Shown: positions 13,550 through 58,720 of the stretch, piece by piece | How the letters are laid out: each line of letters starts with the position of its first letter | How positions within the stretch are numbered: the first letter of the stretch is position 1 | Source: an uncultured Thiotrichaceae bacterium | Lineage (GTDB): Bacteria > Pseudomonadota > Gammaproteobacteria > SZUA-229 | Assembly: GCA_964466455.1 (NCBI GenBank) | Contig: CAYXNL010000004.1 | Span: 1-58,720 of the forward strand | Direction of reading: 5' to 3' | Length of the DNA: 58,720 nucleotides | Position numbers and translations under genes: made by a program | The notes under the pieces: generated by a model | What the model saw: only the letters and a program-made list of their open reading frames with translations | Databases searched by the model: none | What the model was told of the DNA's origin: nothing

Positions 13550-15655
13550 GTGGCTCGTACAACGCCAATCAGTCGCTATAGAAATATTGGCATTATGGCG
13601 CATATTGATGCCGGCAAAACGACAACCACAGAACGGATTCTTTACTACACTGGCATTTCTCATAAAATAGGTGAGGTTCATGATGGTGCCGCTACCATGG
13701 ACTGGATGGAACAGGAACAGGAGCGGGGTATTACGATTACTTCAGCAGCCACAACCTGTTTCTGGTCGGGCATGGAAAAGCAGTACGAACAGCACCGTAT
13801 CAATATTATTGATACGCCCGGACACGTTGATTTTACCATTGAGGTAGAGCGTTCATTGCGTGTTCTGGATGGAGCCTGTGCTGTATTCTGCGCTGTTGGT
13901 GGGGTTGAGCCGCAGTCGGAAACAGTGTGGCGCCAGGCAAATAAATATCATGTCCCACGGATGGTCTTTGTTAATAAAATGGATCGGGCCGGTGCGGATT
14001 TTCTGCGCGTTGTCGAACAGATAAAAGACCGTCTTGGCGCGAATTCTGTTGCGATGCAGGTTGCGATTGGTGCCGAAGAAAAATTTGAAGGGGTCGTTGA
14101 TCTCGTCAGAATGAAGGCGATTTACTGGAGTGAGGAAAACATGGGTTCGGTGTTTACCGAAACAGATGTTCCCGATGAATTGCAGGCCCTGTGTGAAGAA
14201 CGCCGTGAGCTGATGGTTGAAGCCGCCGCTGAGGCAAATGATGTATTAATGGGAAAATATCTGGAGACAGGTGATCTTGATGTGCAGGAAATTCGCCAGG
14301 GAATACGTGAACGTACACTGGCTAATGAAATTGTGCCGGCATTCTGTGGTTCTGCGTTTAAGAATAAAGGCGTGCAGGCAATGCTTGATGCCGTAATCGA
14401 CTATATGCCATCACCAGTAGATGTGCCACCAATAAAGGGCCATCTGGATGATAAAGATGAGACGGTAGCGGAGCGCCAGCCTGATGATAATGTTCCATTT
14501 GCTGCGCTGGGTTTTAAAATTGCGACAGATCCGTTTGTAGGGAACCTGACGTTTTTCAGGGTTTACTCTGGTGTGTTAAAATCGGGTGACACGGTTTATA
14601 ACCCGGTGAAAGGTAAAAAAGAACGTGTTGGTCGTATTGTGCAGATGCATGCGAACAGCCGTGAAGAAGTCTCAGAGGTTTGCGCTGGCGATATTGCGGC
14701 CGCGATTGGGCTCAGAGACATTACCACCGGTGACACCTTATGTGATCCGAAAGCGGTTATTACGCTGGAAAAGATGGATTTTCCCGATCCGGTTATTTCG
14801 GTTGCTGTAGAGCCGAAAACGAAAGCGGATCAGGAAAAAATGGGTGTTGCGCTGGGTAAGCTGGCACATGAGGATCCTTCGTTTCGTGTCTATACGGATG
14901 AAGAATCGGGACAGACCATTATTTCGGGCATGGGCGAGTTGCACCTTGAGATAATTATTGACCGGATGAGACGTGAGTTTAATGTAGAGGCTAACGTTGG
15001 TAATCCACAGGTTGCCTACCGTGAGGCAATTAGCCGAACGGTAGAGCATGAAGCCAAATTTATACGTCAGTCTGGTGGTAAGGGTCAATATGGGCATGTG
15101 TATCTGCGTTTAGAATCGCGAACACCAGGCGATGGTTATGAATTTGTCAACAAAATTGTTGGTGGCACCATACCAAAAGAGTTTATTCCTGCTGTTGATA
15201 AAGGTGTGCAGGATCAGATGAAAAATGGTGTGCTGGCAGGGTATCCGATTGAAGATGTTTGTGTGACTCTGTTTGATGGTTCGTATCATGATGTTGATTC
15301 GAGTGAGCTGGCGTTTAAAATTGCCGGTTCAATCTGTTTTAGAGAAGCGGCACTGGAGGCCGGTCCAAAGTTACTGGAACCGATAATGAAGGTCGAAGTG
15401 GTTACTCCAGGGGAATATATGGGCGATGTCATGGGTGACCTGAGCCGACGACGTGGTATTGTCAGCGGTATGGAAGACACTGTGTTGGGGAAGAATATTA
15501 GAGCGGACGTGCCGTTGTCAGAAATGTTTGGTTATGCAACAGCGTTGCGTTCGGCTACGCAGGGTCGGGCAACCTATTCAATGGAATTTGAAAAATATGC
15601 GCAGGCGCCAAAGGTCATTGCGGACGCGGTGATTAGTAGTAAAACAGGGTATTGA
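13550..15655 (+). CDS. fusA: Elongation factor G
   Basis: [35 protein letters not shown]; GTG start. Confidence 0.99.
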
Positions 15656-47494: not shown

Positions 47495-47670
47495 TCCATT
47501 TATGGTTTATTTTTTATCGTTATAAAATTCCAGAGTGAAGTCAATCCGAAATCGCGGTAATATTACGCCAATTTACTTCAGGGCACCTCTATTAATTGAT
47601 TGCGGTGCCCTTCACTCAGCATCAACTGCTGTATTATTTTTTATACCCGTTGGGGAAAGGCATAGCAAAC

Positions 47671-48234
47671 ATGGCATCTTATAGTCCAAATCAGTTTAAA
47701 AATGGTTTAAAAATACTTATCGACAATGACCCCTGCTCAATTACCGAAAATATTGTAGTTAAACCGGGTAAAGGGCAGGCATTTAACCGGATTAAGGCCA
47801 AAAATCTGAAAACGGGCAGAGTGATAGAAAAAACCTATAAAAGTACCGAGTCTGTAGGGGCTGCGGATGTCGATGAAATGGATGTTGAATATTTATACAG
47901 TGACGGTGAATACTGGCACTTCATGGATCCGGTATCGTATGAGCAGTATGCGGCCGATAAGGTTGCCGTGGGTGATGGTGTTAAATGGCTTAAAGGGCAG
48001 GAAAGTTGTGTGATGACATTATGGAATGGTTCCCCGTTGGTGATTGCCACGCCTAACTTTGTTGAATTAACGGTGTCGCAAACTGATCCTGGCCTGAAAG
48101 GTGATACCGCACAGGGCGGTACTAAACCTGCCACGCTGGAAACCGGTGCAGAAGTTAAGGTGCCCCTGTTTATTGAGGAAGGTGATGTGCTTAAGATAGA
48201 TACCCGTACGGGCGACTATGTTTCACGTGCATAA
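47671..48234 (+). CDS. efp: Elongation factor P
   Basis: Start MASYS at 47671; KPGKG (modified Lys), [13 protein letters not shown]. Confidence 0.98.
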
Positions 48235-48274
48235 TGGATTACAGCAGGTCTGGCAGTATTGTTGCAGGTAGTAG

Positions 48275-49255
48275 ATGAACTCGCGCTGGCAGCCGACAGC
48301 AAGTTTGGCCGTACTGAAAAAACGAGCGCATCTGTTGCAGGAAATACGTGCTTTTTTTTCTGCTCGCGAGGTGATGGAAGTTGAAACACCTGTCTTATCT
48401 ACTTATGCAACCACCGATCCTCATCTGGATAGTTTACAAACGACAGTGGGTGATACCACCTGTTATCTGAATACCTCACCGGAATACTGTATGAAACGCC
48501 TGCTGGCCAGTCAGGCAATTGCGATCTACCAGATTATCAGAGTCTTTCGTGATGATGAATATGGCCGTTATCATAATCCTGAATTCACCATGTTGGAATG
48601 GTATCGTCCTGGCTATTCACTGACGCAACTTATGGATGAAGTAGAGGCGCTGATTAAAACCACCTCTGCCGGTCGGTTTTCGTCGCCGTGTTTTTCTCGC
48701 CTTAGTTACCAGCAAGCCTTTGAACAGTATGCCGGATTTAATCCACACAGGTGTAGCATGGCACAGTGCCGACAGGTAGTGCTGGATCACAATATTGAGA
48801 TTCCTGAGGGGATGTCCGCAGCACAGACTAGTCTGGATGACTGGCTGGACTGGATCCTGACGCAGTTGGTACTGCCTGCATTACCCGCGCAGCAGTTTGT
48901 TTTTTTATATGATTATCCTGCATCACAGGCATCGCTGGCAAAAATAGAAAAGACCGACATGGGGTACCCGTTAGCACGCCGGTTTGAATTACTCTATGGC
49001 GAACTGGAACTGGCGAATGCGTTTTATGAATTAACCGATGCCAATGAACAGGAGCAGCGCTTTAGACAGGAATGCCAACAGCGACAGATAGCAGGAAAAC
49101 CAGCTCCGGAGATGGACCAAAACCTGCTGGCGGCATTAGCACATGGCCTGGCAGAATGTTCAGGAGTGGCAATAGGTCTGGATCGCTTACTGATGGTGTT
49201 ATGCAACAGTCGGTCAATAGATGAAGTGCTGGCATTTCCGTGGCAACGGATCTGA
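48275..49255 (+). CDS. epmA: EF-P lysine aminoacylase EpmA (PoxA/GenX)
   Basis: TSPEYCMKRLL, HNPEFTMLEWY, GVAIGLDRL. Confidence 0.96.
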   Translation: MNSRWQPTASLAVLKKRAHLLQEIRAFFSAREVMEVETPVLSTYATTDPHLDSLQTTVGDTTCYLNTSPEYCMKRLLASQAIAIYQIIRVFRDDEYGRYHNPEFTMLEWYRPGYSLTQLMDEVEALIKTTSAGRFSSPCFSRLSYQQAFEQYAGFNPHRCSMAQCRQVVLDHNIEIPEGMSAAQTSLDDWLDWILTQLVLPALPAQQFVFLYDYPASQASLAKIEKTDMGYPLARRFELLYGELELANAFYELTDANEQEQRFRQECQQRQIAGKPAPEMDQNLLAALAHGLAECSGVAIGLDRLLMVLCNSRSIDEVLAFPWQRI

Positions 49256-49511: not shown

Positions 49512-50642
49512 ATGAACATGAAGGTAGCTTTCAGCATGTCGATTAGAAAAATAACAAAATATTCTCTTCTCCTTTTCTCTTTTATCTCGATTGTTGCACA
49601 GGCTGACAGTGTTATCACGGTGGGTGTCGCGCCCCATGGTGGTTATGTCATTCTCGGTGGTAGTGTGATTCCGTTAAAAGAGGTCACTCTTTCGGCACAA
49701 ATGCCTGGTCGAGTGGTATCAATTGCCGGGGATGAAGGGGACAGGTTTAAAGCGGGTACGGTTTTGCTCAAGCTGAATAACGAAGATTTACTGGCAAAGA
49801 AAACGGCCGTTGAAGCGCAACTGGCCTCGGCGAAAGATGCGGTACAGAATGCACGGGTGCAATATAACCGGGAATTATGGAGCCCGCGTGTTTATAACCC
49901 TCGTCCAATGTCGGGGATGGCGATGCCTTCCATGTTTGACAGTTTTTTTAACAGGAATAGTTTTTTTGGTGGTAATGGCAATAAAAGCATCGAGCGACAT
50001 GCAGATCTTGTTGGCCAGGGTTCACAGGTTGTGGCAGCCCGTTCACGGGTACGTGAGGTCGAATCAAAGTTGCGCGAAGTTGATGCCAAGCTACGTGATA
50101 CCGTTGCCATCGCACCATTTGACGGTATTATTATGAAAAAACAGGTTGAAATTGGTGACACCGTTCAGCCGGGGCAGCCATTACTGATTTTTTCCTATAT
50201 AAAATTTCTGCGTATTCGTGCGGATGTTCCCGCACGTTTAATGCCGGGGCTTAGAAAAGGCATGATAGTTCCCGCTATGCTGGATGTGGGTAATACACAG
50301 GTTAATGTTCGTGTTGCGCAGATTTCACCGGTAGCAGATAAAACACGCCATACAGTGACCGTCAAGTTTGATTTACCCGAGGGTGTTCCCGGTGGTGTGG
50401 GTACTTATGCAGAAGTAATGATCCCTGATGTTAATTCACCTATGCGTGCTCTGCCGGTTGTCCCTAATGCTGCAATACAGAGGAACGGCAGCCTGCCTTC
50501 CGTCATGGTACTCAATCATAATAATAAACCGGAAATGCGCTTGATTCGTATTGGTGAAAAAGTGGGTGAGGATAGCGTTACCGTGCTTTCAGGTTTGAAA
50601 CCCGGTGAGCGGATCCTTGTTCATGGCCATAATGGACAATAG
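49512..50642 (+). CDS. RND periplasmic adaptor (HlyD/MFP family) with hairpin-tip insertion
   Basis: Split lipoyl motifs (SAQMPGRV...GDRFKAG and APFDGII..VEIGDTVQPGQPL), coiled coil, cleavable signal AQA-D; start may be 49536. Confidence 0.92.
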   Translation: MNMKVAFSMSIRKITKYSLLLFSFISIVAQADSVITVGVAPHGGYVILGGSVIPLKEVTLSAQMPGRVVSIAGDEGDRFKAGTVLLKLNNEDLLAKKTAVEAQLASAKDAVQNARVQYNRELWSPRVYNPRPMSGMAMPSMFDSFFNRNSFFGGNGNKSIERHADLVGQGSQVVAARSRVREVESKLREVDAKLRDTVAIAPFDGIIMKKQVEIGDTVQPGQPLLIFSYIKFLRIRADVPARLMPGLRKGMIVPAMLDVGNTQVNVRVAQISPVADKTRHTVTVKFDLPEGVPGGVGTYAEVMIPDVNSPMRALPVVPNAAIQRNGSLPSVMVLNHNNKPEMRLIRIGEKVGEDSVTVLSGLKPGERILVHGHNGQ

Positions 50643-50725: not shown

Positions 50726-50764
50726 TTCTTATGACCGATTCTTATGACCGATTCTTATGACAGA
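50726..50764. repeat. 13-bp tandem repeat spanning the RND start codon
   Basis: TTCTTATGACCGA x2 plus TTCTTATGACAGA. Confidence 0.95.
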
Positions 50765-53700
50765 TAATAAAGAAAAAAAATCACTGGATGTTGTAGAAGA
50801 AAAGCTTAAATCCGTGCCAGGAGAGCCTGAAGCTGTGGAAAAAGAAGTGCATTTAGGTGTCGCGGGTAATGTTGCACGAATTTTTATCAGCTCACCATTA
50901 ACACCCATGCTTATCATTCTGTTTATTCTGATGGGCCTTGCGGGTATTGTTTTTACCCCGCGGCAGGAAGACCCACAGATAACCGTTCCAATGGTTGATA
51001 TTTTTGTCAGATATCCAGGTGCCTCTGCGCAGCAGGTCACTGCACTGGTGGCGAAACCACTGGAACGCATCATGAGTGAGATGAGTGGTGTGAAACACAT
51101 CTATGCTGCAGCGCAACGGGATTCGGCTATTGTTACTGTGCAGTTTAAGGTGGGGCAGAAGATGGGTCCCTCACTGACCAAGCTATACAGCAAACTCAAC
51201 TCCAATAAAGACAAGATGCCGCCGGGGGTTACCAGCTATATTGTTAAGCCAAAAGATATTAATGATGTTCCTGGACTGACCTTAACGCTCTGGTCTAACC
51301 AGGTGAACGATGCCTCATTGCGTCTGGTCGCACTGGATGTATTGCAGAAACTAAGTGAAGTACCCAATTCTAACCAGGGGTTTGTTGTCAGCGGGCGTAC
51401 CGAACAGTTGCGGGTAGAAGTTTTACCAGAGAAGCTGGCAGGCTATGGTATCACCTTGCAGCAGATAGCAAATACCATACGCCAGGCAAATAGTGAAGAA
51501 AGCGTGGGCAATATCGAAGCCTGGGATAAAAGCTTTAAGGTATATACCGGTTCTTTTCTGAGAACAGCGCAGGATGTTGAAAATGTTGTTGTAGGCATCA
51601 AGGATGGTCTCCCTGTATACATACGTGATGTTGCTAATGTTATTAACGGGCCGTCTGAAGTAACCAAACTGGTCACGCAATACACCGGGCCCGCCAGCAA
51701 GGAAAAAGAGGTTGCTAATGGGGCTCAGGCAGTAACGATTGCTATTGCCAAGAAAAAAGGTAGTAATGGTGTTTCTGTCTATAAAGCATTACTGGCAAAA
51801 GTTAACGCTATAAAAGGTGTCATTATTCCCGATAATGTTCATGTCTTTGTTTCTCGGGACTACGGGGTGACAGCAAATAACAAGGTAAATGAGCTGATCT
51901 TCAAGTTATTTGTCGCCACCGGTATTGTGACCCTGTTGATCTGGTATGCGCTGGGTTGGCGCCCTGCCGTGGTGGTGCTGATTGTTATCCCGATTGTTAT
52001 TCTGTTTACCGTATTCAGCGCGATGATATTGGGGCAGAGTATAAACAGAGTGAGTCTGTTCGCCCTGATTTTTTCCATTGGCATTCTGGTTGATGACGCG
52101 ATTGTGGTGATTGAAAATATCTATCGCCACTGGTTGATAAAAGGGGATATGAGTGAAAAAGTATCTATTGATGCAGTGCGGGAGGTAGGTAATCCAACTA
52201 TTCTGGCTACCTTCACGGTAATTGCAGCGCTGCTGCCAATGGGAGCGGTGCGCGGCATGATGGGGCCCTATATGCTGCCTATTCCCATATTAGGCACGGT
52301 CGCCATGCTGGTTTCACTATTTGCTGCTTTTGCGTTTACCCCGTGGCTGGCTAACAGGCTCAAACCCTCAATGGAGCAGTTGCGTAAATCGGAGGAAAAG
52401 GAACATCGAGCTAATGATCGACTGGCCAGATTTTTCAGGAGAATGATCTGTCCGCTGGTGGATAATAAAAAACTGGGTTATGGCTTTTTAATATCACTGT
52501 TTGTACTGTTCTTCGCCAGTTGTGCAATGTTTTATACAAAGGCTGTATCGGTAAAAATGCTGCCACTGGATAATAAGGCTGAATTTGATATTGTCATTAA
52601 TTTTCCTGAAGGCACATCCTTAATTGATACCGCTAATTTAGCAGCTACCCTGGCAGGTGAAGCGAGGAAATTTAAAAATGTTGTTGCATTGCAGTCCTAT
52701 GTAGGGACAGCTTCACCGTATGATTTCAACGGTCTGGTTCGTCATTATTATCTGCGTGATAAACCCTGGCAGGCAGATATTCAGGTTGAACTGACCGATA
52801 AGGATAAACGAGACGTTACCAGCCATCAAATTGTTGAGAAAATGCGTAAGGTTATGGCTCCTGTTGCGAAGGCCGCAGGTGCCCGCATACAAATGGTAGA
52901 GATGCCGCCGGGGCCGCCGGTGTTGCAATCTGTGGTGGCGATAATTTATGGACCGAATGCTAAAACACGCAGGAAATTTGCCCATGATATGACGCTTATG
53001 TTCGAAAAAGCGCCGAGTATTACTGATGTTGATAATTTAATGCAGGATCCGTATGAAATTTGGCGCTTTGAAGTGGATCGCGACAAGGCGTTGCGTGAAG
53101 GTATCAGTGTTGATGCCATTAATCAGACATTGGCTATGGCCGTCGGTGGCTACAGACTTGGTGATATTAAACGTGGCTCGGTGGTTGACCCTACCTATAT
53201 CGTGCTACAGGTACCTCAGTCGGTACGCTCCGAGTTCTCCAGACTGGGGACAATTCCGGTACAGGCCGCCAATGGAGCGCTGGTGCCATTGTCAGAACTG
53301 GGTACTTTTGTGAAGGGCATTGAACAGGATGTTATCTACCAGAAAGATTTGCGTAACGTTGAATTCGTGACCGGTGCCAGTGCAGGCAAGCTGGCTGCAC
53401 CAATATATGGCATGTTCCAGGTCGATGATATGCTCAAGAACTATATTGCGCCCGATGGCGTGAAGGTAGCCCATGGGTTTATTCACGGTGGTTATTTTGG
53501 GCCACCGGCTAACAGTAGAAAGTCAGCGTTTGAATGGGGTGGTGAGTGGACGGTGACGTATGAAACCTTCAGGGACATGGGGGGCGCATTTCTAATTGCC
53601 ATGGTGCTGATTTATATGCTGGTTGTGGTTGAGTTTAAAAATTACATTTTTGCCTCAATTATTATGGCACCGATCCCGCTGACACTTATTGGTATTATTC

Positions 53701-54854
53701 CGGGTCACTGGTTACTGAATGCGAGCTTTACCGCCACATCCATGATTGGCTGGATTGCGCTATCCGGCATTATTGTGCGTAACTCAATATTACTGGTGGA
53801 TTTCACCCGCCATGAAGTACTGCGAGGTATTGATGTACGTGATGCGGTCATTAACGCATGCCGTGCCAGAACACGTCCCATTCTGATTACCGCACTGGCA
53901 CTGGTTGGCGGCTCCAGTGTTATTCTGACTGACCCGATCTTCCAGGGGATGGCTATTTCCTTACTGTTCGGTGTTATTGTTTCAACGATATTAACCCTGT
54001 TTATTATTCCGTTGGGTTGTATCTCGGCTAAAAATGCCTTTGCAGTTTGCCCCGCTGGTTCAGTAAAAGCAACGGTAGAAGAAGAATATATTGATAGCCT
54101 GGAGCCGCCCTCATGTGAGTACAAAACACCGGTGTGGATGAGTGTTTATAGCGCTGTTGTCAGCGTCGTGAACTGGATCTTTGTTATTGTGAAAATGTTT
54201 TATAACCTGGTGCGGCTGCTTATTAGCGTAATCAGGGAAAAGCTTACTTCCAGTCATGCAACACCACCAACCGAGCCTGGAACGCCCGGTTCTTCGTCAC
54301 CCACCCCGGTACCCCCCGCACCACCCGTACCCTCTACGCCTGCGGCTTCTACAGACGTGCATTCTACGGTTAAGACTAAGACTGCGGAGTCAGATGCATC
54401 GGCGACAGCGTCCGTAGCTGATTTGGCTACAGAAAAAACAGAATCTACGGATATAAATCAGGAGAAAATAGCTAAGCCAGGCGTTAACCATGAGGTTGTA
54501 AAAAAAGCAATGGTTAAGAAAGCAATGGTTAAGAAAGCAATGGTTAAAAAGGGAATTGTTAAGAAGGAAACGGTTAAGAAAAAGGAAGGTAAAACAGTAC
54601 CGAAAAAGAGTGTGGTGAAGAAAAAAATATCGGTGAAAACATTACCGGTAAAGAAAACAACAGGCGAGAATAGTCCAGTTAAAAAAGGCCGGCCTGAAAA
54701 AGTTCCAGGTAGAAAAATAACGGTTAAGAAAGTACCGGCTAAAAAATCACCATCAGGCAAACGTAGAGGCATCCGCTTAAAAGTTGATAACGATCAGATG
54801 CCTGATAACCATAAGTCTGATAACCATAAGTCTGATAAAGATAGTGGAGAATAA
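50757..54854 (+). CDS. RND permease (AcrB/AcrD/AcrF-like) with about 280-aa C-terminal extension
   Basis: TM4 GILVDDAIVVIENI, TM10 GIIVRNSILLVDF (Arg at the AcrB K940 position), TM11 RTRPILITA; 1365 aa. Confidence 0.93.
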   Translation: MTDNKEKKSLDVVEEKLKSVPGEPEAVEKEVHLGVAGNVARIFISSPLTPMLIILFILMGLAGIVFTPRQEDPQITVPMVDIFVRYPGASAQQVTALVAKPLERIMSEMSGVKHIYAAAQRDSAIVTVQFKVGQKMGPSLTKLYSKLNSNKDKMPPGVTSYIVKPKDINDVPGLTLTLWSNQVNDASLRLVALDVLQKLSEVPNSNQGFVVSGRTEQLRVEVLPEKLAGYGITLQQIANTIRQANSEESVGNIEAWDKSFKVYTGSFLRTAQDVENVVVGIKDGLPVYIRDVANVINGPSEVTKLVTQYTGPASKEKEVANGAQAVTIAIAKKKGSNGVSVYKALLAKVNAIKGVIIPDNVHVFVSRDYGVTANNKVNELIFKLFVATGIVTLLIWYALGWRPAVVVLIVIPIVILFTVFSAMILGQSINRVSLFALIFSIGILVDDAIVVIENIYRHWLIKGDMSEKVSIDAVREVGNPTILATFTVIAALLPMGAVRGMMGPYMLPIPILGTVAMLVSLFAAFAFTPWLANRLKPSMEQLRKSEEKEHRANDRLARFFRRMICPLVDNKKLGYGFLISLFVLFFASCAMFYTKAVSVKMLPLDNKAEFDIVINFPEGTSLIDTANLAATLAGEARKFKNVVALQSYVGTASPYDFNGLVRHYYLRDKPWQADIQVELTDKDKRDVTSHQIVEKMRKVMAPVAKAAGARIQMVEMPPGPPVLQSVVAIIYGPNAKTRRKFAHDMTLMFEKAPSITDVDNLMQDPYEIWRFEVDRDKALREGISVDAINQTLAMAVGGYRLGDIKRGSVVDPTYIVLQVPQSVRSEFSRLGTIPVQAANGALVPLSELGTFVKGIEQDVIYQKDLRNVEFVTGASAGKLAAPIYGMFQVDDMLKNYIAPDGVKVAHGFIHGGYFGPPANSRKSAFEWGGEWTVTYETFRDMGGAFLIAMVLIYMLVVVEFKNYIFASIIMAPIPLTLIGIIPGHWLLNASFTATSMIGWIALSGIIVRNSILLVDFTRHEVLRGIDVRDAVINACRARTRPILITALALVGGSSVILTDPIFQGMAISLLFGVIVSTILTLFIIPLGCISAKNAFAVCPAGSVKATVEEEYIDSLEPPSCEYKTPVWMSVYSAVVSVVNWIFVIVKMFYNLVRLLISVIREKLTSSHATPPTEPGTPGSSSPTPVPPAPPVPSTPAASTDVHSTVKTKTAESDASATASVADLATEKTESTDINQEKIAKPGVNHEVVKKAMVKKAMVKKAMVKKGIVKKETVKKKEGKTVPKKSVVKKKISVKTLPVKKTTGENSPVKKGRPEKVPGRKITVKKVPAKKSPSGKRRGIRLKVDNDQMPDNHKSDNHKSDKDSGE
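54498..54587 (+). repeat. 15-bp coding repeat, VKKxx pentapeptides in the RND tail
   Basis: VKKAM x3, VKKGI, VKKET, VKKKE. Confidence 0.95.
54802..54838 (+). repeat. 15-bp tandem repeat (DNHKS) at the RND C-terminus
   Basis: CTGATAACCATAAGT x2 plus CTGATAA. Confidence 0.9.
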
Positions 54855-54858
54855 TTTA

Positions 54859-55584
54859 ATGTATGCTAAAGGTAAATTTCTGTCATTATCATGTCTTGTC
54901 TTAGCATTATTGCCTTCGGTTGTAATGGCGACACAGGAACAGGATAAAGCAGGTGCAGCACTGAAAGCGATTGATTCGACAAGGGCGGGGGCAGCGACGA
55001 CTCATACAGTTATAAAACCGGCGGGAACTAAAAATAGTGTTACCGTCAGAAGTGCCAGAAGTAATAATATGCCAATGAAATTTCCACCATGGCCGCCCCG
55101 GCAATCTTTTAACCATAACATGTTACCGCCTCCACCACCCGGGCCTTATATGTCTACGGCATTAAGTAATACGCCGACGAAAGTTCCAGTATCGAATCGA
55201 CCCGTGTATTTACCACCAGTAATGCACTCACCACCGGTAATGAATGAAGGTGCGGAGCCGATGGCAATGTTCAGTCCAGATCGGCCCTGGCCAGGTGATC
55301 GGGTAAGGCAATGGAAGCCTGAAAATGGCGGCTATCATTACGCCGGGTCTGCTTTTCCACCACAATATCCACCCGTTAAAGAAAATGGGTACCGCCCATA
55401 TCAACCAGCGCTGCCCCCGAGGTTTGTCAGGTCACCAGGTAGAATGCATACCAGGATGCCATCCAGCCGCCACAGGTACAATGGTTCGGCCATGATGCAA
55501 CCGGGTATGCCGCCACGGTTTCAACCACCGGCTTATCCTTCTGCACCACTTCAGCCATACCATCGTTCACAAACCGGATATTAA
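54859..55584 (+). CDS. Secreted proline-rich low-complexity protein
   Basis: GGAGA RBS 8 nt before ATG 54859; signal peptide ending VMA; LPPPPPGPYMSTAL, PDRPWP, many PP pairs. Confidence 0.78.
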   Translation: MYAKGKFLSLSCLVLALLPSVVMATQEQDKAGAALKAIDSTRAGAATTHTVIKPAGTKNSVTVRSARSNNMPMKFPPWPPRQSFNHNMLPPPPPGPYMSTALSNTPTKVPVSNRPVYLPPVMHSPPVMNEGAEPMAMFSPDRPWPGDRVRQWKPENGGYHYAGSAFPPQYPPVKENGYRPYQPALPPRFVRSPGRMHTRMPSSRHRYNGSAMMQPGMPPRFQPPAYPSAPLQPYHRSQTGY

Positions 55585-55589
55585 ATAGT

Positions 55590-56393
55590 TTGATGGGTAT
55601 ATCACGGTTTTTTTTGTTTTTTGTCGTATTTTTACTGTCACTAATGATGAACACTGCGGCAGTTGCGGGAGATCGTATTGCCGGACGTAGCGATCAGCGG
55701 ACTCGGCCATTGAATTCGGCAGAGTTTATTCTGGCGGCAACGGATAACCCATGGGTGCCGTCGCCAACACAACGGGCAGACGGCTTTCCTCATTACTATA
55801 ATGCAAAAAAAGATAACCCCTTCCAGCCTCAGCAAATGAACCGGTCACCGATTTATAACAGTAGAAATTCATCACATCCTTATTACAGATACCCGATGCA
55901 ACCACGTTATGTGACGCCAGCTATCCTGAAATCAATCAGAAAACAGCAAATGCGTGCACAGCAAATACTGCCATCATGGCAGCGATATCCATACCCATAC
56001 CAAAGATATCCATACCAAAAGCGTAATTACTGGCAATATAATCCATCACCTAACAGATATGGAAGAGGTGGTGATCGCGGCAATAGCCTTGGAAATAACC
56101 CTGGGAATAGCCCTGAAAATAGCCCCGAAAATAGCTATGGCAACTGGTCTGCGAACCCTGCATTACCGGTTAGTCCCGGTACCCTGCTGGATAAATCATT
56201 ATTAGATGGCAACGGGGGCTTGCCGCTTACCCCGGACATGACAGCAATAGAGGGTATTTCACCATTAAACGCCAATGAACCATTACCGCCTGAATTATCA
56301 GGGAATAATTATGACAGTTCGGGTCGTTATTTTGATCCCATGGCATTTAATCCCTCGTCAATGTTCGGTCCTTTTGATAATTTTGCGCGGTAG
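55590..56393 (+). CDS. Secreted Tyr/Pro/Asn/Gln/Arg-rich low-complexity protein
   Basis: Signal peptide ending AVA; QRYPYPYQRYPYQ; (G/E)NS(P/L/Y) repeats; 5 bp after the previous stop. Confidence 0.78.
   Translation: MMGISRFFLFFVVFLLSLMMNTAAVAGDRIAGRSDQRTRPLNSAEFILAATDNPWVPSPTQRADGFPHYYNAKKDNPFQPQQMNRSPIYNSRNSSHPYYRYPMQPRYVTPAILKSIRKQQMRAQQILPSWQRYPYPYQRYPYQKRNYWQYNPSPNRYGRGGDRGNSLGNNPGNSPENSPENSYGNWSANPALPVSPGTLLDKSLLDGNGGLPLTPDMTAIEGISPLNANEPLPPELSGNNYDSSGRYFDPMAFNPSSMFGPFDNFAR
56079..56138 (+). repeat. 12-bp coding repeat (GNSL GNNP GNSP ENSP ENSY)
   Basis: ggcaatagcctt ggaaataaccct gggaatagccct gaaaatagcccc gaaaatagctat. Confidence 0.9.
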
Positions 56394-56645: not shown

Positions 56646-57275
56646 ATGTTGACAGTTGTAGGTAATTTGAAGGGTGGAACAGGCAAAAGTACAGTTGCAT
56701 TCAACCTTGCAGTATGGTTAGCATACGACAAACAAGGGGTGAAAGCTTTCGATTTAGATCCACAATGTACATTGCTTGATGTTTGTGAAGTACGAGAAGA
56801 AGACGGTTATGAGCCGATATTTGAGGTGTCTTCCGATGTAGATGAAATGGTTACCCTGGCCGCAGACAAAAAATACAGGCAACCGATTATTGTCGATATG
56901 AGTGCAAGTAATATGCCTGCAATGGAAACGGCCATTTCGGTTGCTGACAGAATACTGATACCGGTACAACCGAGTCAGGCAGATATCTGGTCAACGCAAC
57001 GGTTTTTAAAAATTGTCGCGCAGAATCTGAATACAGATAAAAATACAGAAGTGCTTGGTTTTATTAATCGTGCAGATACACATCGGGGTATTCGGGAAAC
57101 AGAAGAAGCACAGCAGGCATTGCAGGTGTTGCAGGGTGTTAAGGCGCTGGATATCCGGCTATATCAGCGAACCGCCTATCGACGCTCATTCAGCGAGGGG
57201 CTGGGTGTATTTGAACTCGACCCGATGGGAAAGGCATCGAAGGAAATGAAAAAACTGGCGGTGATGCTCGATTAA
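56646..57275 (+). CDS. Short orphan ParA/MinD-family ATPase
   Basis: Deviant Walker A KGGTGKST, A' DLDPQ, Walker B IIVD; 209 aa, no N-terminal HTH, no parB adjacent. Confidence 0.93.
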   Translation: MLTVVGNLKGGTGKSTVAFNLAVWLAYDKQGVKAFDLDPQCTLLDVCEVREEDGYEPIFEVSSDVDEMVTLAADKKYRQPIIVDMSASNMPAMETAISVADRILIPVQPSQADIWSTQRFLKIVAQNLNTDKNTEVLGFINRADTHRGIRETEEAQQALQVLQGVKALDIRLYQRTAYRRSFSEGLGVFELDPMGKASKEMKKLAVMLD

Positions 57276-57348: not shown

Positions 57349-58344
57349 ATGAAATTTTTTCGCTGGTTATTAAGTAATATATTATTAATTATTGTTGTGG
57401 TCGGACTGATCTATACCTATGTGTACTGGGGACATCTGACTGGCGCTGATACCCCGGGAGGGAGGGTAATTACCTATTTATCTGGTGAGTCAGGCTTCGT
57501 CCATAATTTTGTTAATGGGATTAAAGAAAAAAACAGCAATCGGGAAAAGCACTCACCGTCTAATCAGCATACTGCAACGCCGTCAGTGGCTTTACATGGG
57601 GAAAATAACTCAGATCATTCGATCACAACATCCGGCTCAGCACCAGACAATCATGCTACTCCGGAAAATGTTTCTGCCGGGAAGGTAACCGCTGAGGCAA
57701 AGGAAAAAGAAAAAGAAAATAACGTTAACGTTGTTTCACGACAGCCGCAGCAGAGTGATAATACCGGCAATGCTTCATCTGCTGTATTACCACCCAAAGA
57801 AGCCGCGCATAACGCTAATAGTACCCTGGCGCAACAACCGGTTGCTACAAAAGAAAAGAATACTATTCCCCGGAAAAAAGGTCTTTCACCTTCCGCTCAG
57901 GCAAAGGTAGAACCACAGAAACCTGAACAGCAAGGTCATTCTAAAATAGCCAGATCAGGTGTTTTTGTCAGTCCAGACGTTGAGTCCGCACTGGAAAAGG
58001 CCGGTGCTAAAGGGGAGGTGGCAACATTGACACCGACCGCAATACGTAAAGTCTGGATCGAAGCCAGAAAATCCTTTTATAAGCATGACTATATGCAATC
58101 AGAGAAGGACTATAAACGTGTTATAGCGGCGACAAAAAATAATTATGATGCCTATGGAGAACTGGGTAACGTTTATTTTTATCAGGGTAAAAATGATAAA
58201 GCCGCCGCCACTTACATGAAAGCTGCGCTTATAATGATAGATTCAGGGCAGAGTAACCGCGCGCGCAGCTTACTGGGCCTGATGCACTATCTCAGTAAGG
58301 ATAAAGCGAAATTGCTTGAGCAGAAACTTGAGGCAGCTCAATAA
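57349..58344 (+). CDS. Membrane-anchored protein with disordered linker and C-terminal TPR domain
   Basis: N-terminal TM (LLSNILLIIVVVGLIYTYVYW), long S/N/A/E/K-rich linker, TPR-like YDAYGELGNVYFYQGKNDKAA. Confidence 0.8.
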   Translation: MKFFRWLLSNILLIIVVVGLIYTYVYWGHLTGADTPGGRVITYLSGESGFVHNFVNGIKEKNSNREKHSPSNQHTATPSVALHGENNSDHSITTSGSAPDNHATPENVSAGKVTAEAKEKEKENNVNVVSRQPQQSDNTGNASSAVLPPKEAAHNANSTLAQQPVATKEKNTIPRKKGLSPSAQAKVEPQKPEQQGHSKIARSGVFVSPDVESALEKAGAKGEVATLTPTAIRKVWIEARKSFYKHDYMQSEKDYKRVIAATKNNYDAYGELGNVYFYQGKNDKAAATYMKAALIMIDSGQSNRARSLLGLMHYLSKDKAKLLEQKLEAAQ

Positions 58345-58437: not shown

Positions 58438-58720
58438 ATGACCGATAAAAAAATGACAGAATCAATAAAAGCCGAGTCAACCGATACCCCGGCTGAAAAA
58501 ACAACAGATACTGCCAACACCGTATCTAATGTAAAAACGGAGATAAAGGTAGAAAAAAAAGCGGAGGGTAAAAAAATCTCAGCGAAAAGATCGGTGGCTA
58601 AAGCATCGACAGCAGAGGCACCGTCTAAAAAGAAGGCGGTGAAGAAAGATCCCGTGAAAAAAGGCCCCGTGAAAAAAGGCCCGGTGAAGAAAGACGCAGT
58701 GAAGAAAGATGAGGTGAAGA
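58438..58720 (+). CDS. Lys-rich histone-H1-like protein with VKKxx repeats, truncated by window end (not in ORF track)
   Basis: Hand translation, open to the edge: MTDKKMTESIKAESTDTPAEK...SKKKAVKKDPVKKGPVKKGPVKKDAVKKDEVK. Confidence 0.8.
   Translation, partial: MTDKKMTESIKAESTDTPAEKTTDTANTVSNVKTEIKVEKKAEGKKISAKRSVAKASTAEAPSKKKAVKKDPVKKGPVKKGPVKKDAVKKDEVK
58639..58720 (+). repeat. 15-bp coding repeat, VKKxx pentapeptides
   Basis: gtgaagaaagatccc gtgaaaaaaggcccc gtgaaaaaaggcccg gtgaagaaagacgca gtgaagaaagatgag gtgaag. Confidence 0.95.

Follow-up and report, generated by a model that had tools for sequence, protein, structure and literature searches.

A large subfamily of RND permeases carries a C-terminal tail with a seven-residue basic motif, RRGIRLK, close to its end, and the presence of this motif coincides with that of a neighboring ParA-like ATPase gene: among 62 related loci, 29 have both, 33 have neither and none is discordant. 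Based on these comparisons, we propose with moderate confidence that the pump is linked to this ATPase through the motif, and that the Lys-rich segment preceding it would be a lineage-specific polycationic spacer. The pattern suggests that the pump may carry its own address tag for the ATPase. In the following, we describe the permease encoded in a window of 58,720 nucleotides, the whole stretch of DNA analysed, together with its homologs, its genomic neighborhood and the alternative explanations for its tail.

The permease gene (50757..54854, + strand) is one uninterrupted open reading frame (ORF) for a protein of 1365 residues, of which residues 1–1095 constitute the core and the remaining 270 the tail, slightly fewer than the approximately 280 of the original prediction. 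The core scores 461 bits (cut-off 28; E=9.8e-138) with the Pfam family ACR_tran (PF00873) and can be aligned end to end with the MexK and CmeB chains in the PDB. An AF2 model of residues 1–1200, obtained with a 90-sequence alignment at a mean pLDDT of 84.8, displays the pattern of 12 transmembrane (TM) helices and the periplasmic beta/alpha subdomains expected for an RND protein, with TM12 ending at about residue 1090–1095. The Asp pair D446/D447 in TM4 is invariant in all 90 aligned sequences and presumably has a proton-relay role, by analogy with D407/D408 of AcrB. Solved RND permeases span 1022–1069 residues, in line with the length of about 1050 originally quoted for AcrB-type permeases, and the 270-residue extension is therefore real relative to the family norm.

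With the AcrB/MexB/MdtB-type RNDs (PF00873), this permease shares the full RND core, the Asp-Asp pair of TM4 and a membrane-fusion adaptor partner. It is, however, only similar to the solved pumps at about E-60, the members of its subfamily have C-terminal tails of 170–390 residues whereas the solved pumps stop soon after TM12, and its cluster contains no outer-membrane factor gene. Moreover, it scores 424 and 312 bits against NF033617 and NF000282, the NCBIfam models of curated multidrug RNDs, where the cut-off is 1250; by this sequence measure, it represents a separate subfamily, and the role of this subfamily is evidently not ordinary drug efflux. The subfamily is large, with a core identity of 62–65% across Gammaproteobacteria, Alphaproteobacteria and Magnetococcales, and is concentrated in bacteria that oxidise and store sulfur and in relatives of these that live in symbiosis.

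Behind TM12, the tail begins with an acidic linker (residues 1096–1125; 54042..54131, + strand), which has two Cys and a net charge of -4 and is modeled with a pLDDT below 50 (residues 1098–1123 disordered). The linker ends in a conserved EYKTP, and its junction with the following helix, EYKTPLWM, is conserved among homologs. This helix (residues 1126–1163; 54132..54245, + strand; VWMSVYSAVVSVVNWIFVIVKMFYNLVRLLISVIREKL) is hydrophobic, comprises 38 residues and is modeled as single and continuous at pLDDT 62–86, with disorder on both sides. It has a mean KD of 1.36 and a hydrophobic moment of 1.34, and a polar/small-residue stripe along it, with G/S at i, i+4 and i+7, suggests that it may engage in helix–helix packing. 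Next come a Pro/Ser/Thr-rich linker (residues 1164–1205; 54246..54371, + strand) with 12 Pro in 42 residues and a TPPPxxPPP-type sequence conserved among homologs, disordered over residues 1164–1200, where the model ends, and an acidic, Thr-rich variable stretch (residues 1206–1247; 54372..54497, + strand; net charge -3), the sequence of which is not conserved between homologs. The Lys-rich region of VKKxx repeats (residues 1248–1342; 54498..54782, + strand) counts 95 residues, with 32 K and 5 R against 4 D/E (net charge +33, pI 11.45). It contains a 15-bp tandem repeat in 5.2 copies (54504–54581, TRF), its copy number is polymorphic in frame, and it ends in KRRGIRLK.

This succession of an extra helix, a Pro/Thr/Ser linker, an acidic stretch and a Lys-rich part of about 100 residues is the one originally described, except that the protein had been thought to end at RRGIRLK (residues 1336–1342; 54762..54782, + strand). 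The motif, which contributes 3 R and 1 K to an otherwise low-complexity tail and which we put forward as the candidate tag for the ParA-like ATPase (motif-bearing peptide, KKAPSKKSSPGGRRGIRLKDD), is in fact followed by an acidic C-terminal end of 23 residues (residues 1343–1365; 54783..54851, + strand; VDNDQMPDNHKSDNHKSDKDSGE). This end has a net charge of -4 and a DNHKS repeat, with a 15-bp repeat at 54802–54838. Judging by its composition, the tail beyond residue 1200 is predicted to be disordered. It has neither a Pfam match above threshold nor a folded C-terminal domain; the match to HC2 (PF07382) amounts to 23.4 bits at a gathering score of 40. The likeness to histone H1 noted earlier holds for the composition and, as far as these scores indicate, is compositional only.

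The tail is not a peculiarity of one strain, as had been considered in case homologs should lack it: we obtained 774 matches to tail-bearing homologs, including ones from Chromatiaceae, Thiothrix, Thiodiazotropha, Sedimenticola, Magnetococcales and others. The exact motif RRGIR[LIV]K occurs in 108 of 128 proteins, and 19 of the other 20 have a close variant, e.g. RRGIKLK, RRGIQLK or RRGIRLR/N; a relaxed pattern is matched by 193 of 216 family proteins. In all homologs, the motif lies 2–30 residues from the C-terminus, in most of them with acidic residues following, and a scan of 8605 ORFs from the loci found it nearly confined to RND C-termini. The tail helix is present in about 205 of the 216 family members. 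It occurs twice in one homolog (P0229) and is absent from the Magnetococcales proteins and from two further ones (L021, L031), all of which keep the motif; likewise, in 25 of the 216, the motif is found on a tail that is not Lys/Arg-rich. In the Magnetococcales proteins (1186–1202 residues), the stretch from TM12 to KKEGGxRRGIRLKP lacks both a hydrophobic segment and Lys repeats, and the tails are not basic but rich in acidic residues; the loci of these proteins still encode the ParA-like gene. Conversely, the protein of locus L063 has a Lys-rich tail, but no recognisable motif and no ParA. Even at more than 90% protein identity, the Lys repeats drift quickly in sequence and length, while the motif remains unchanged. 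Helix and Lys repeats can both be missing, which leaves R-R-G-I-R-L-K as the sole near-invariant element of the tail. The expectation of a conserved helix and motif with repeats of variable length was thus borne out for the motif and the repeats, the helix being dispensable in some lineages.

The neighboring genes described here all lie on the + strand. Upstream of the permease gene is that of a periplasmic adaptor (MFP; 49512..50642), which matches HlyD_D23/HlyD_3 in Pfam and RND_mfp in NCBIfam (157 bits); an MFP gene precedes the RND gene in nearly all related loci. Downstream follow two genes for secreted low-complexity proteins (54859..55584 and 55590..56393), which have N-terminal signal-peptide-like hydrophobic segments and no match in Pfam or NCBIfam, and in related loci, one to five such low-complexity secreted-type genes separate the RND gene from the ParA-like one. 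The ParA-like ATPase (56646..57275) is succeeded by a protein with an N-terminal TM helix and C-terminal TPRs (57349..58344; TPR_16 and related matches), which is found at this place in a subset of loci. The last ORF (58438..58720) leaves the window and probably encodes the Lys-rich N-terminus of a membrane protein of a family referred to as X, an assignment made by position and by the Lys-rich start, as the portion of X that is conserved would be encoded past the end of the window. Genes for X and for a dynamin-like GTPase are frequent neighbors in related loci. A scan for promoters and terminators yielded only as many candidates as expected by chance, and it carries no information on operon structure. 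The sequencing runs that contain the locus are DNA runs only.

The ParA-like ATPase, a protein of 209 residues, is of the ParF/McdA type, with matches to CbiA/AAA_31/MipZ in Pfam and to ParF (1.4e-09) and McdA (5e-06) in the PDB. It features the deviant Walker A motif KGGxxK[ST] with its signature Lys (KGGTGKST), and NLKGGTGKST, DLDPQ, PSQAD and NRxDTH are invariant in 29 orthologs. Given the invariance of all ParA motifs and the likeness to ParF and McdA, the ATPase looks active. It scores 135 bits against the NCBIfam model ParA_partition, which has an equivalog cut-off of 180; in sequence terms, it is related to the plasmid-partition ParAs, but is not their equivalog.

For the comparison of motif and ParA-like gene, we scored the adjacent gene only, at the 62 loci in which the 3' end of the RND gene is complete and the flank is long enough. 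A ParA-like gene is located 31–3174 nt downstream of the RND gene in all 29 loci with the motif and in none of the 33 without it. Seven changes are needed for each of the two traits on the RND-core tree, and all six independent contrasts are concordant (sign test, p=0.031). In locus L048, where the RND tail measures just 22 residues, the genes L1c, L1d, TPR, X and dynamin-like are retained, while ParA is missing from between L1d and TPR, which are now 26 nt apart. Joint loss from an otherwise retained cluster is also seen in Thiofilum (L059) compared to its sister Thiothrix (L060), in locus L040 and in the pair L024/L071; tblastn searches of the co-loss loci yielded no ParA remnant. In a reciprocal check, two further ParA-like orthologs, selected solely by the length of their contigs, were both found downstream of an MFP-RND pair with the motif, which in one of these loci is hidden behind a frameshift in the called gene. 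The adjacency is not universal, since in a Thiomargarita MAG (L015) the motif is present and unrelated genes follow the RND gene within the 2.7-kb flank. An engagement of the ParA by the polycationic tail had been among the original suggestions, next to a binding of DNA or of polyphosphate; the co-distribution speaks strongly for the engagement itself, but attributes it to RRGIRLK and not to the polycation.

ParA/MinD ATPases position chromosomes, plasmids, carboxysomes, chemoreceptor arrays, flagella and the divisome, and many of them are 'orphans' with no partner assigned. The known partners present a short, positively charged, disordered peptide and may themselves form part of the cargo (PMC10241942; PMC11407121). 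With the tags of ParB, ParG, McdB, MinE, PomX and TlpT, the RND motif shares the short basic peptide, here in a region predicted to be disordered, and the encoding in one operon with a small ParF/McdA-like ATPase; it differs from them in its C-terminal position and its fusion to a 12-TM transporter. To our knowledge, all characterised ParA partner peptides are N-terminal. The RRG(I) part recalls, in our view, the N-terminal GRGL motif of ParB. In a PDB search, the motif had no sequence similarity to any solved ParA partner peptide, and a 32-residue motif peptide retrieved only a chance match to ribosomal protein uS12 (E=3.3). In the literature, we found no account of RRGIRLK, of a Lys-rich or H1-like RND extension, or of a ParA-like/RND pairing.

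In the mechanism that we propose, the extension marking this RND subfamily would be cytoplasmic and mostly disordered. RRGIRLK and the acidic residues trailing it would form a functional element that docks onto the ParF/McdA-type ATPase and probably stimulates it, which would make the pump complex itself the cargo that a ParA system positions. Together, the stretches rich in Pro and in Lys would provide a long, flexible, lineage-specific polycationic spacer, which would let the tag reach a matrix-bound, probably nucleoid-bound ParA and may contribute non-specific DNA affinity. Direct binding, ATPase stimulation, the nucleoid matrix and the positioning outcome are what we infer here. In locus L043, a natural in-frame read-through fusion (13700–14563, with TGA=W) joins the tail via a 22-residue linker to the ParA-like protein. 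The ParA-like ortholog folds at pLDDT >90 in the AF2 model, and the motif stays at pLDDT <50, with no docking predicted confidently; this makes for a weak test, as the prediction was run on a monomer, without nucleotide and without an alignment for the peptide. Two other candidates were set aside: a likeness between the tail and the ParA segment DTHRGIRET in a MAFFT overlay was treated as coincidence, and X was rejected as a ParA partner acting through a basic N-terminus, since its N-terminus is acidic in several ParA-bearing loci (L028, L030 and L043) and X also remains where ParA is lost.

Rather than ParA, the motif might bind another component of the module, for which the dynamin-like GTPase, the TPR protein and the cytoplasmic N-terminus of X are candidates, or it might bind a small ligand such as c-di-GMP, with the ParA-like gene merely traveling along. 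We regard this as unlikely, though a serious contender. The X and dynamin-like genes, too, are often found near the RND gene, but together with the TPR gene they persist where motif and ParA have been lost (L048, L059, L040), and in Magnetococcales, motif and ParA occur in loci that lack dynamin-like and DUF302 genes. GGDEF/EAL genes are found near several loci, and RRGIR fits what we take to be the RRxxR arginine-pair pattern of PilZ switches; yet this RRxxR-like string is all that the tail has, with no PilZ match, barrel or (D/N)xSxxG, and the GGDEF genes, of which these genomes have many, are either on the opposite strand or distant. Still, the co-distribution could reflect shared membership in a module instead of direct contact.

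Alternatively, the tail might chiefly be a polyanion binder, with the H1-like segment anchoring the pump, without any involvement of ParA, to nucleoid DNA, RNA or polyphosphate; the motif would be no more than the end of the basic region. The extreme charge of the Lys-rich segment and the weak HC2-like match would fit this account, as would the Lys-rich tail without ParA in L063 and the similar Lys-rich, cytoplasmic N-terminus of the neighbor X in the same clade: the product of 58438–58720, probably an X protein, shares a VKKxx-type repeat with the RND tail, and Lys-rich starts are also seen in X from L001, L004 and L038. The segment also resembles Hc2 (PF07382), AlgP and PhaF in its short Lys/Ala/Val/Pro-rich repeats, its very high pI and its predicted disorder, AlgP and PhaF having C-termini of KPAA-type repeats; unlike in these proteins, however, it is part of a membrane protein and dispensable within the family. 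We consider this account quite unlikely. It leaves the perfect co-distribution of motif and ParA unexplained, and it is at odds with the rapid drift of the repeats next to a fixed motif and with the 25 motif carriers that have no Lys/Arg-rich tail, among them those with the non-basic Magnetococcales tails. Since the Magnetococcales have motif and ParA without Lys repeats and L063 represents the converse case, polyanion binding, by sequence comparison, cannot be the core conserved function of the tail, although it is plausible as a lineage-specific add-on.

The coupling to ParA presupposes a cytoplasmic tail, and the hydrophobic segment past TM12 (median 35 residues in the family) bears on this point. 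Were it a 13th TM helix, the Pro- and Lys-rich tail would be periplasmic and could act as a tether to peptidoglycan or the outer membrane in the manner of TonB and TolA, which contain Pro-rich spacers and Lys/Ala-rich stretches. The resemblance lies in the hydrophobic helix with a Pro-rich and Lys-rich extended region behind it; in addition, one source annotates a homolog (P0104) as 'AcrB/TonB', and the cluster has no outer-membrane factor gene. An in-to-out TM helix is, however, opposed by the charges that flank it, with a mean of -1.6 ahead of it and of +1.2 over the 15 residues that follow, and by the highly basic remainder of the tail, which has a median net charge of +18 in the family. 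Unlike TonB and TolA, the RND tail has no folded C-terminal domain (TonB_C/TolA_C), but ends in a short acidic low-complexity stretch, and the co-distributed partner candidate, ParA, is cytoplasmic. The motif is conserved behind zero, one or two hydrophobic segments, which should place it on the cytoplasmic side of TM12. The comparative evidence thus points to the cytoplasm as the most likely location of the motif, and we deem a periplasmic tether very improbable. The helix would instead attach the tail's base to the membrane or embed it there, with the sidedness of the tail unchanged, possibly as an interfacial element, by dipping in and out, or by packing on the TM domain. AcrZ, the single-helix partner of AcrB, similarly adds one hydrophobic helix to an RND TM domain, but the tail helix does so in cis, after TM12, and has no sequence relationship to it.

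The notion that the low-complexity, repeat-bearing and copy-number-polymorphic tail is a functionless extension or the artefact of a read-through or gene fusion is effectively refuted by its conservation and has a negligible chance of being right, given hundreds of homologs across classes, the invariant seven-residue motif and a reading frame that is no assembly artefact, being identical in contigs assembled from four independent runs, which belong to three studies, with the in-frame loss of 15 nt, or one VKKAM unit (also in P0126), as the sole indel.

If RRGIRLK does couple the pump to ParA, this would be the first envelope-spanning transporter to serve as a ParA cargo, and the first C-terminal ParA tag, fused straight to the cargo; its seven residues would also be searchable and testable at once. 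A further step is much more speculative and, we think, doubtful: the pump might be the membrane-embedded cargo or seed of a hitherto unrecognised ParA-positioned envelope system, in which pump and adaptor would work together with the secreted low-complexity proteins, with X, a Met-rich membrane protein, and with the dynamin-like GTPase. This system would build a periplasmic structure or space it along the length of the cell, in these sulfur-storing lineages possibly the periplasmic sulfur globules, and RRGIRLK would link this structure, through the inner membrane, to a gradient of ParA in the cytoplasm. Our literature search retrieved nothing that links sulfur globules to RND, dynamin or DUF302 proteins.

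Opposite the Lys-rich region, an ORF on the minus strand (54458–54772) was rejected as a gene and represents a Phe/Leu-rich shadow of the Lys codons.

The RND permease of the window is encoded by a 1365-aa ORF at 50757-54854 (+), directly downstream of an adaptor gene (49512-50642). Residues 41-1088 make up a genuine RND permease (Pfam ACR_tran, E=9.8e-138), yet this core falls under the cut-offs of the curated multidrug subfamilies; its best solved relatives, MdtB, MexK and CmeB (about E-60), all measure 1022-1069 aa. In an AF2 model of residues 1-1200 (alignment of 90 homologues, mean pLDDT 84.8), TM12 ends around residue 1090-1095 and is followed by a disordered linker (1098-1123) and a single unbroken helix (1126-1163, pLDDT 62-86), beyond which the chain is disordered again. 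The long tail of the original prediction is real: 270 aa follow TM12, consisting of an acidic linker containing Cys, a hydrophobic helix of 38 aa, a Pro/Ser/Thr linker, an acidic/Thr stretch, a Lys-rich part of 95 residues (32 K, 5 R, net +33, pI 11.45) that ends in KRRGIRLK as described, and a further acidic end of 23 aa that had gone unmentioned. The proposed likeness to histone H1 holds for composition only, as the HC2 profile reaches 23.4 bits, short of its cut-off of 40.

The VKKAM units of the tail are encoded by a 15-bp tandem repeat. Four metagenome assemblies, independent of one another and made from samples of hydrothermal vents and other sources, have the same reading frame, and the sole indel among them is an in-frame loss of 15 nt, i.e. 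one VKKAM unit, which matches a 1360-aa relative in the protein collection. A second 15-bp tandem repeat (54802-54838) encodes 2.5 copies of DNHKS within the acidic C-terminal end; the close relatives P0122 and P0123 have a single unit, so both tail repeats are length-polymorphic, in frame.

A search seeded with residues 1060-1365 returned 774 matches, nearly all of them RND permeases of 1250-1400 aa, which contradicts a strain-specific tail absent from homologues. The core-seeded search gave 8000 matches at E < 1e-50, of which the best 120 share 61-81% identity (the near-identical P0002 aside) and almost all exceed 1190 aa; an outgroup without the tail (Nitrospira, Geobacteraceae, NC10 and others) stands at 42-46% identity. 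Scanning one genome per species, we located the family in Chromatiaceae (Allochromatium, Chromatium, Thiorhodococcus, Halochromatium, Thiohalocapsa), Thiothrix, Thiofilum, Leucothrix, Thiomargarita, Marithrix, Thiodiazotropha, Sedimenticola, Hydrogenovibrio, Vesicomyosocius, Ectothiorhodospiraceae, Sulfuritalea, Hyphomicrobiaceae, Rhodomicrobium, Rhodobacterales and Sneathiellales, and named matches of the core protein search added Magnetococcales. The common tail plan runs from an acidic linker through EYKTPLWM and the hydrophobic helix to a TPPPxxPPP linker, and then through a variable region and (A/V)KK repeats to KKAPSKKxSPxGRRGIRLKxD.

The invariant part of this plan is RRGIRLK (residues 1336-1342 in the window protein). 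It occurs exactly, as RRGIR[LIV]K, in 108 of 128 proteins, and 19 of the other 20 carry near variants (RRGIKLK, RRGIQLK, RRGIRLR/N, RNGIQLK); the lone exception, P0011, ends inside its Lys-rich repeats. The motif lies 1-30 residues from the C-terminus, usually with acidic residues after it, and is essentially confined to RND C-termini among the 8605 ORFs of all fetched loci. The Lys-rich part drifts fast, even between proteins more than 90% identical, and is absent from 25 motif-bearing members (216 members scored). The expectation that helix and motif would be conserved while repeat length varies was thus borne out for motif and repeats, but not for the helix: in Magnetococcales RNDs (1186-1202 aa), a non-basic, non-hydrophobic stretch leads from TM12 to KKEGGxRRGIRLKP, and two further loci (L021, L031) combine a Lys/Arg-rich tail with the motif or a close variant without the helix. 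One Hyphomicrobiales protein has two helices in its tail. The extra helix is an optional element.

Downstream of the RND gene, 56646-57275 (+) encodes a 209-aa ATPase of the ParA/MinD type (signature KGGTGKST), which is nearest to ParF (1.4e-09) and McdA without being an equivalog of plasmid ParA. Conservation among its orthologues is high, with all ATPase motifs kept, and one orthologue folds at pLDDT > 90 (AF2). The loci of distant homologues share a recurring gene order: the adaptor (MFP), the tailed RND, one to five secreted proteins, for which no Pfam family was found in these neighbourhoods, the ParA-like ATPase, optional TPR and DUF302 genes, a membrane protein family, X, and a dynamin-like GTPase. 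Scoring covered 62 non-redundant loci in which the 3' end of the RND gene is complete and which either have a detected ParA-like gene or extend for 3.5 kb or more downstream. Motif and ParA-like gene, the latter 31-3174 nt downstream, are both present in 29 and both absent in 33, with no discordant locus. On a tree of RND cores, built with the tail columns excluded, each trait requires seven changes, and six of six phylogenetically independent contrasts are concordant (sign test p=0.031). Many motif-less loci are without the entire cluster and possibly represent paralogues. Four lineages (L048, L059, L040 and L024/L071) have other cluster genes but neither motif nor ParA, and tblastn found no ParA remnant in these five loci. 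In L048, the RND tail measures 22 aa and ParA is missing from the 26 nt that separate L1d and TPR; Thiofilum (L059) is without both traits, in contrast to its sister Thiothrix (L060). Two further ParA-like orthologues, picked solely for the length of surrounding sequence, both lie behind an MFP-RND pair with the motif, in one case in a shifted frame of the called RND gene, probably through an assembly indel. Two loci call for caution: a Thiomargarita MAG (L015) has the motif but unrelated genes downstream within its 2.7-kb flank, and L063 has neither ParA nor a recognisable motif, yet retains a Lys-rich tail. On a long-read contig (L089, 5338-5913), the RND gene as called breaks off behind the Pro-rich linker, at 1203 aa, while the Lys-rich region and GRRGIRLKDDG carry on in another frame; the frameshift within the Pro-rich region is due to an indel in the assembly or to a genuine disruption of the gene.

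According to reviews, partners of ParA/MinD ATPases touch their ATPase by a short, positively charged, disordered N-terminal stretch, may belong to the cargo itself, and, for ParA-like members with a basic C-terminal surface, the nucleoid serves as the matrix (PMC10241942; PMC11407121). The RND motif matches the short basic disordered stretch and the partner-as-cargo arrangement, although it is C-terminal rather than N-terminal. Because it fits these two points, we propose RRGIRLK as a tag that the pump itself carries for the ParA-like ATPase. In this model, the Pro-rich and Lys-rich parts of the tail would serve as an extended polycationic spacer, allowing the tag to reach ParA and perhaps adding affinity for DNA, and the helix would keep the base of the tail membrane-associated. 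X has a Lys-rich cytoplasmic N-terminus, similar to the RND tail, in L001, L004 and L038, the closest relatives of the window, and the Lys-rich ORF at 58438 lies at the position of X in those relatives; this hints at a polyanionic target shared within the clade. That the motif binds ParA directly and stimulates the ATPase, which matrix is used, and that positioning results are all inferred. In the AF2 model of a natural in-frame read-through fusion (L043), the motif is unstructured, a weak result from a monomer with no nucleotide and no peptide alignment, and the model lends docking no support. We found no literature description of the motif, the tail or the RND-ParA pairing.

The motif might instead bind another component of the module or a ligand, a reading weakened by the loci that lost motif and ParA and retain X, the dynamin-like gene and TPR, and by Magnetococcales, where motif and ParA occur in loci that have no dynamin-like or DUF302 gene. 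A tail acting chiefly as a polyanion binder is weakened as well, given that the Lys repeats are dispensable and fast-evolving. The same dispensability tells against ParA engagement by the polycationic tail as originally predicted, whereas the concordance of motif and ATPase speaks for the engagement as such. A periplasmic, TonB/TolA-like tether is unlikely. TM12 of RND pumps ends in the cytoplasm, as established from AcrB structures, and the motif, being kept behind zero, one or two hydrophobic segments, should lie on that side. The charge distribution agrees with a cytoplasmic tail (mean charge -1.6 in the acidic flank before the helix and +1.2 in the 15 residues after it; median net charge +18 for the remainder beyond the hydrophobic segment). 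A polar/small stripe at i, i+3/4 along the helix (S, S, S, N, K, N, R, S, R in the window protein; G, G, G, Q, N, R, G in relatives) fits, from sequence, a membrane-associated helix packed on another helix rather than a clean transmembrane span. Finally, the tail as junk or artefact is refuted by its conservation.

The ParA-like proteins contain a segment DTH(R/x)(G/A)(I/V)RE(T/S) (window 57060-57085, residues about 139-147), onto which MAFFT laid the RND-tail RRGIRLK; the likeness is probably a coincidence, the other reading being that the tag mimics this part of ParA.

In most loci, the gene for X comes after those for the ParA-like, TPR or DUF302 proteins (window 58438-58720, probable; L001 19277-20413; L004 18622-19737; L003 19717-20235). 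X matches no Pfam or NCBIfam family. Its variable cytoplasmic N-terminus precedes a conserved transmembrane helix (SARRWELVVYPSLFAFILLAGYGFFLIY) and a heptad-like, presumably periplasmic Met/Asn/Ser/Thr-rich region ending SRPMSFMNxFMPW. Met/Phe/Pro-rich strings recur in a hairpin-tip insertion of the adaptor (49863-49997, NPRPMSGMAMPSMFDSFFNRNSFF), at the C-terminus (56330-56393, DPMAFNPSSMFGPFDNFAR) of the secreted protein at 55590-56393, and at the C-terminus of X in L003, L028 and L043 (RPMSFMNAFMPW). They may represent a shared periplasmic docking motif, a likeness seen by inspection; a strict regex did not match all three.

Downstream of the ParA-like gene, clusters often include the DUF302 protein and the dynamin-like GTPase (Dynamin_N, roughly 490-520 aa), as in L001, L004, L089, L090 and others; the GTPase gene is instead found upstream, on the opposite strand, in loci of Chromatiaceae, Thiodiazotropha and Sedimenticola. 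EF-P and the lysyl-transferase EpmA are encoded immediately upstream of the adaptor in the window (47596-49255) and its closer relatives L001, L004, L038, L089 and L090, and downstream instead in Chromatiaceae and Sedimenticola; the arrangement appears to be conserved synteny with no evident functional link. In four distant loci, an ORF of exactly 131 aa and no family sits just ahead of the adaptor gene (L003 8228-8623; L006 8014-8409; L087 8111-8506; L088 8117-8512).

Most taxa of the family are sulfur oxidisers, and many of these deposit sulfur in the periplasm. Speculatively, the secreted low-complexity neighbours suggest that the system helps to build or space out a periplasmic structure. 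Another such Met/Pro-rich periplasmic protein, made of tandem MRPPMPGMHQRQA repeats, is encoded behind the RND cluster of L006 at the contig end (16721-17197).
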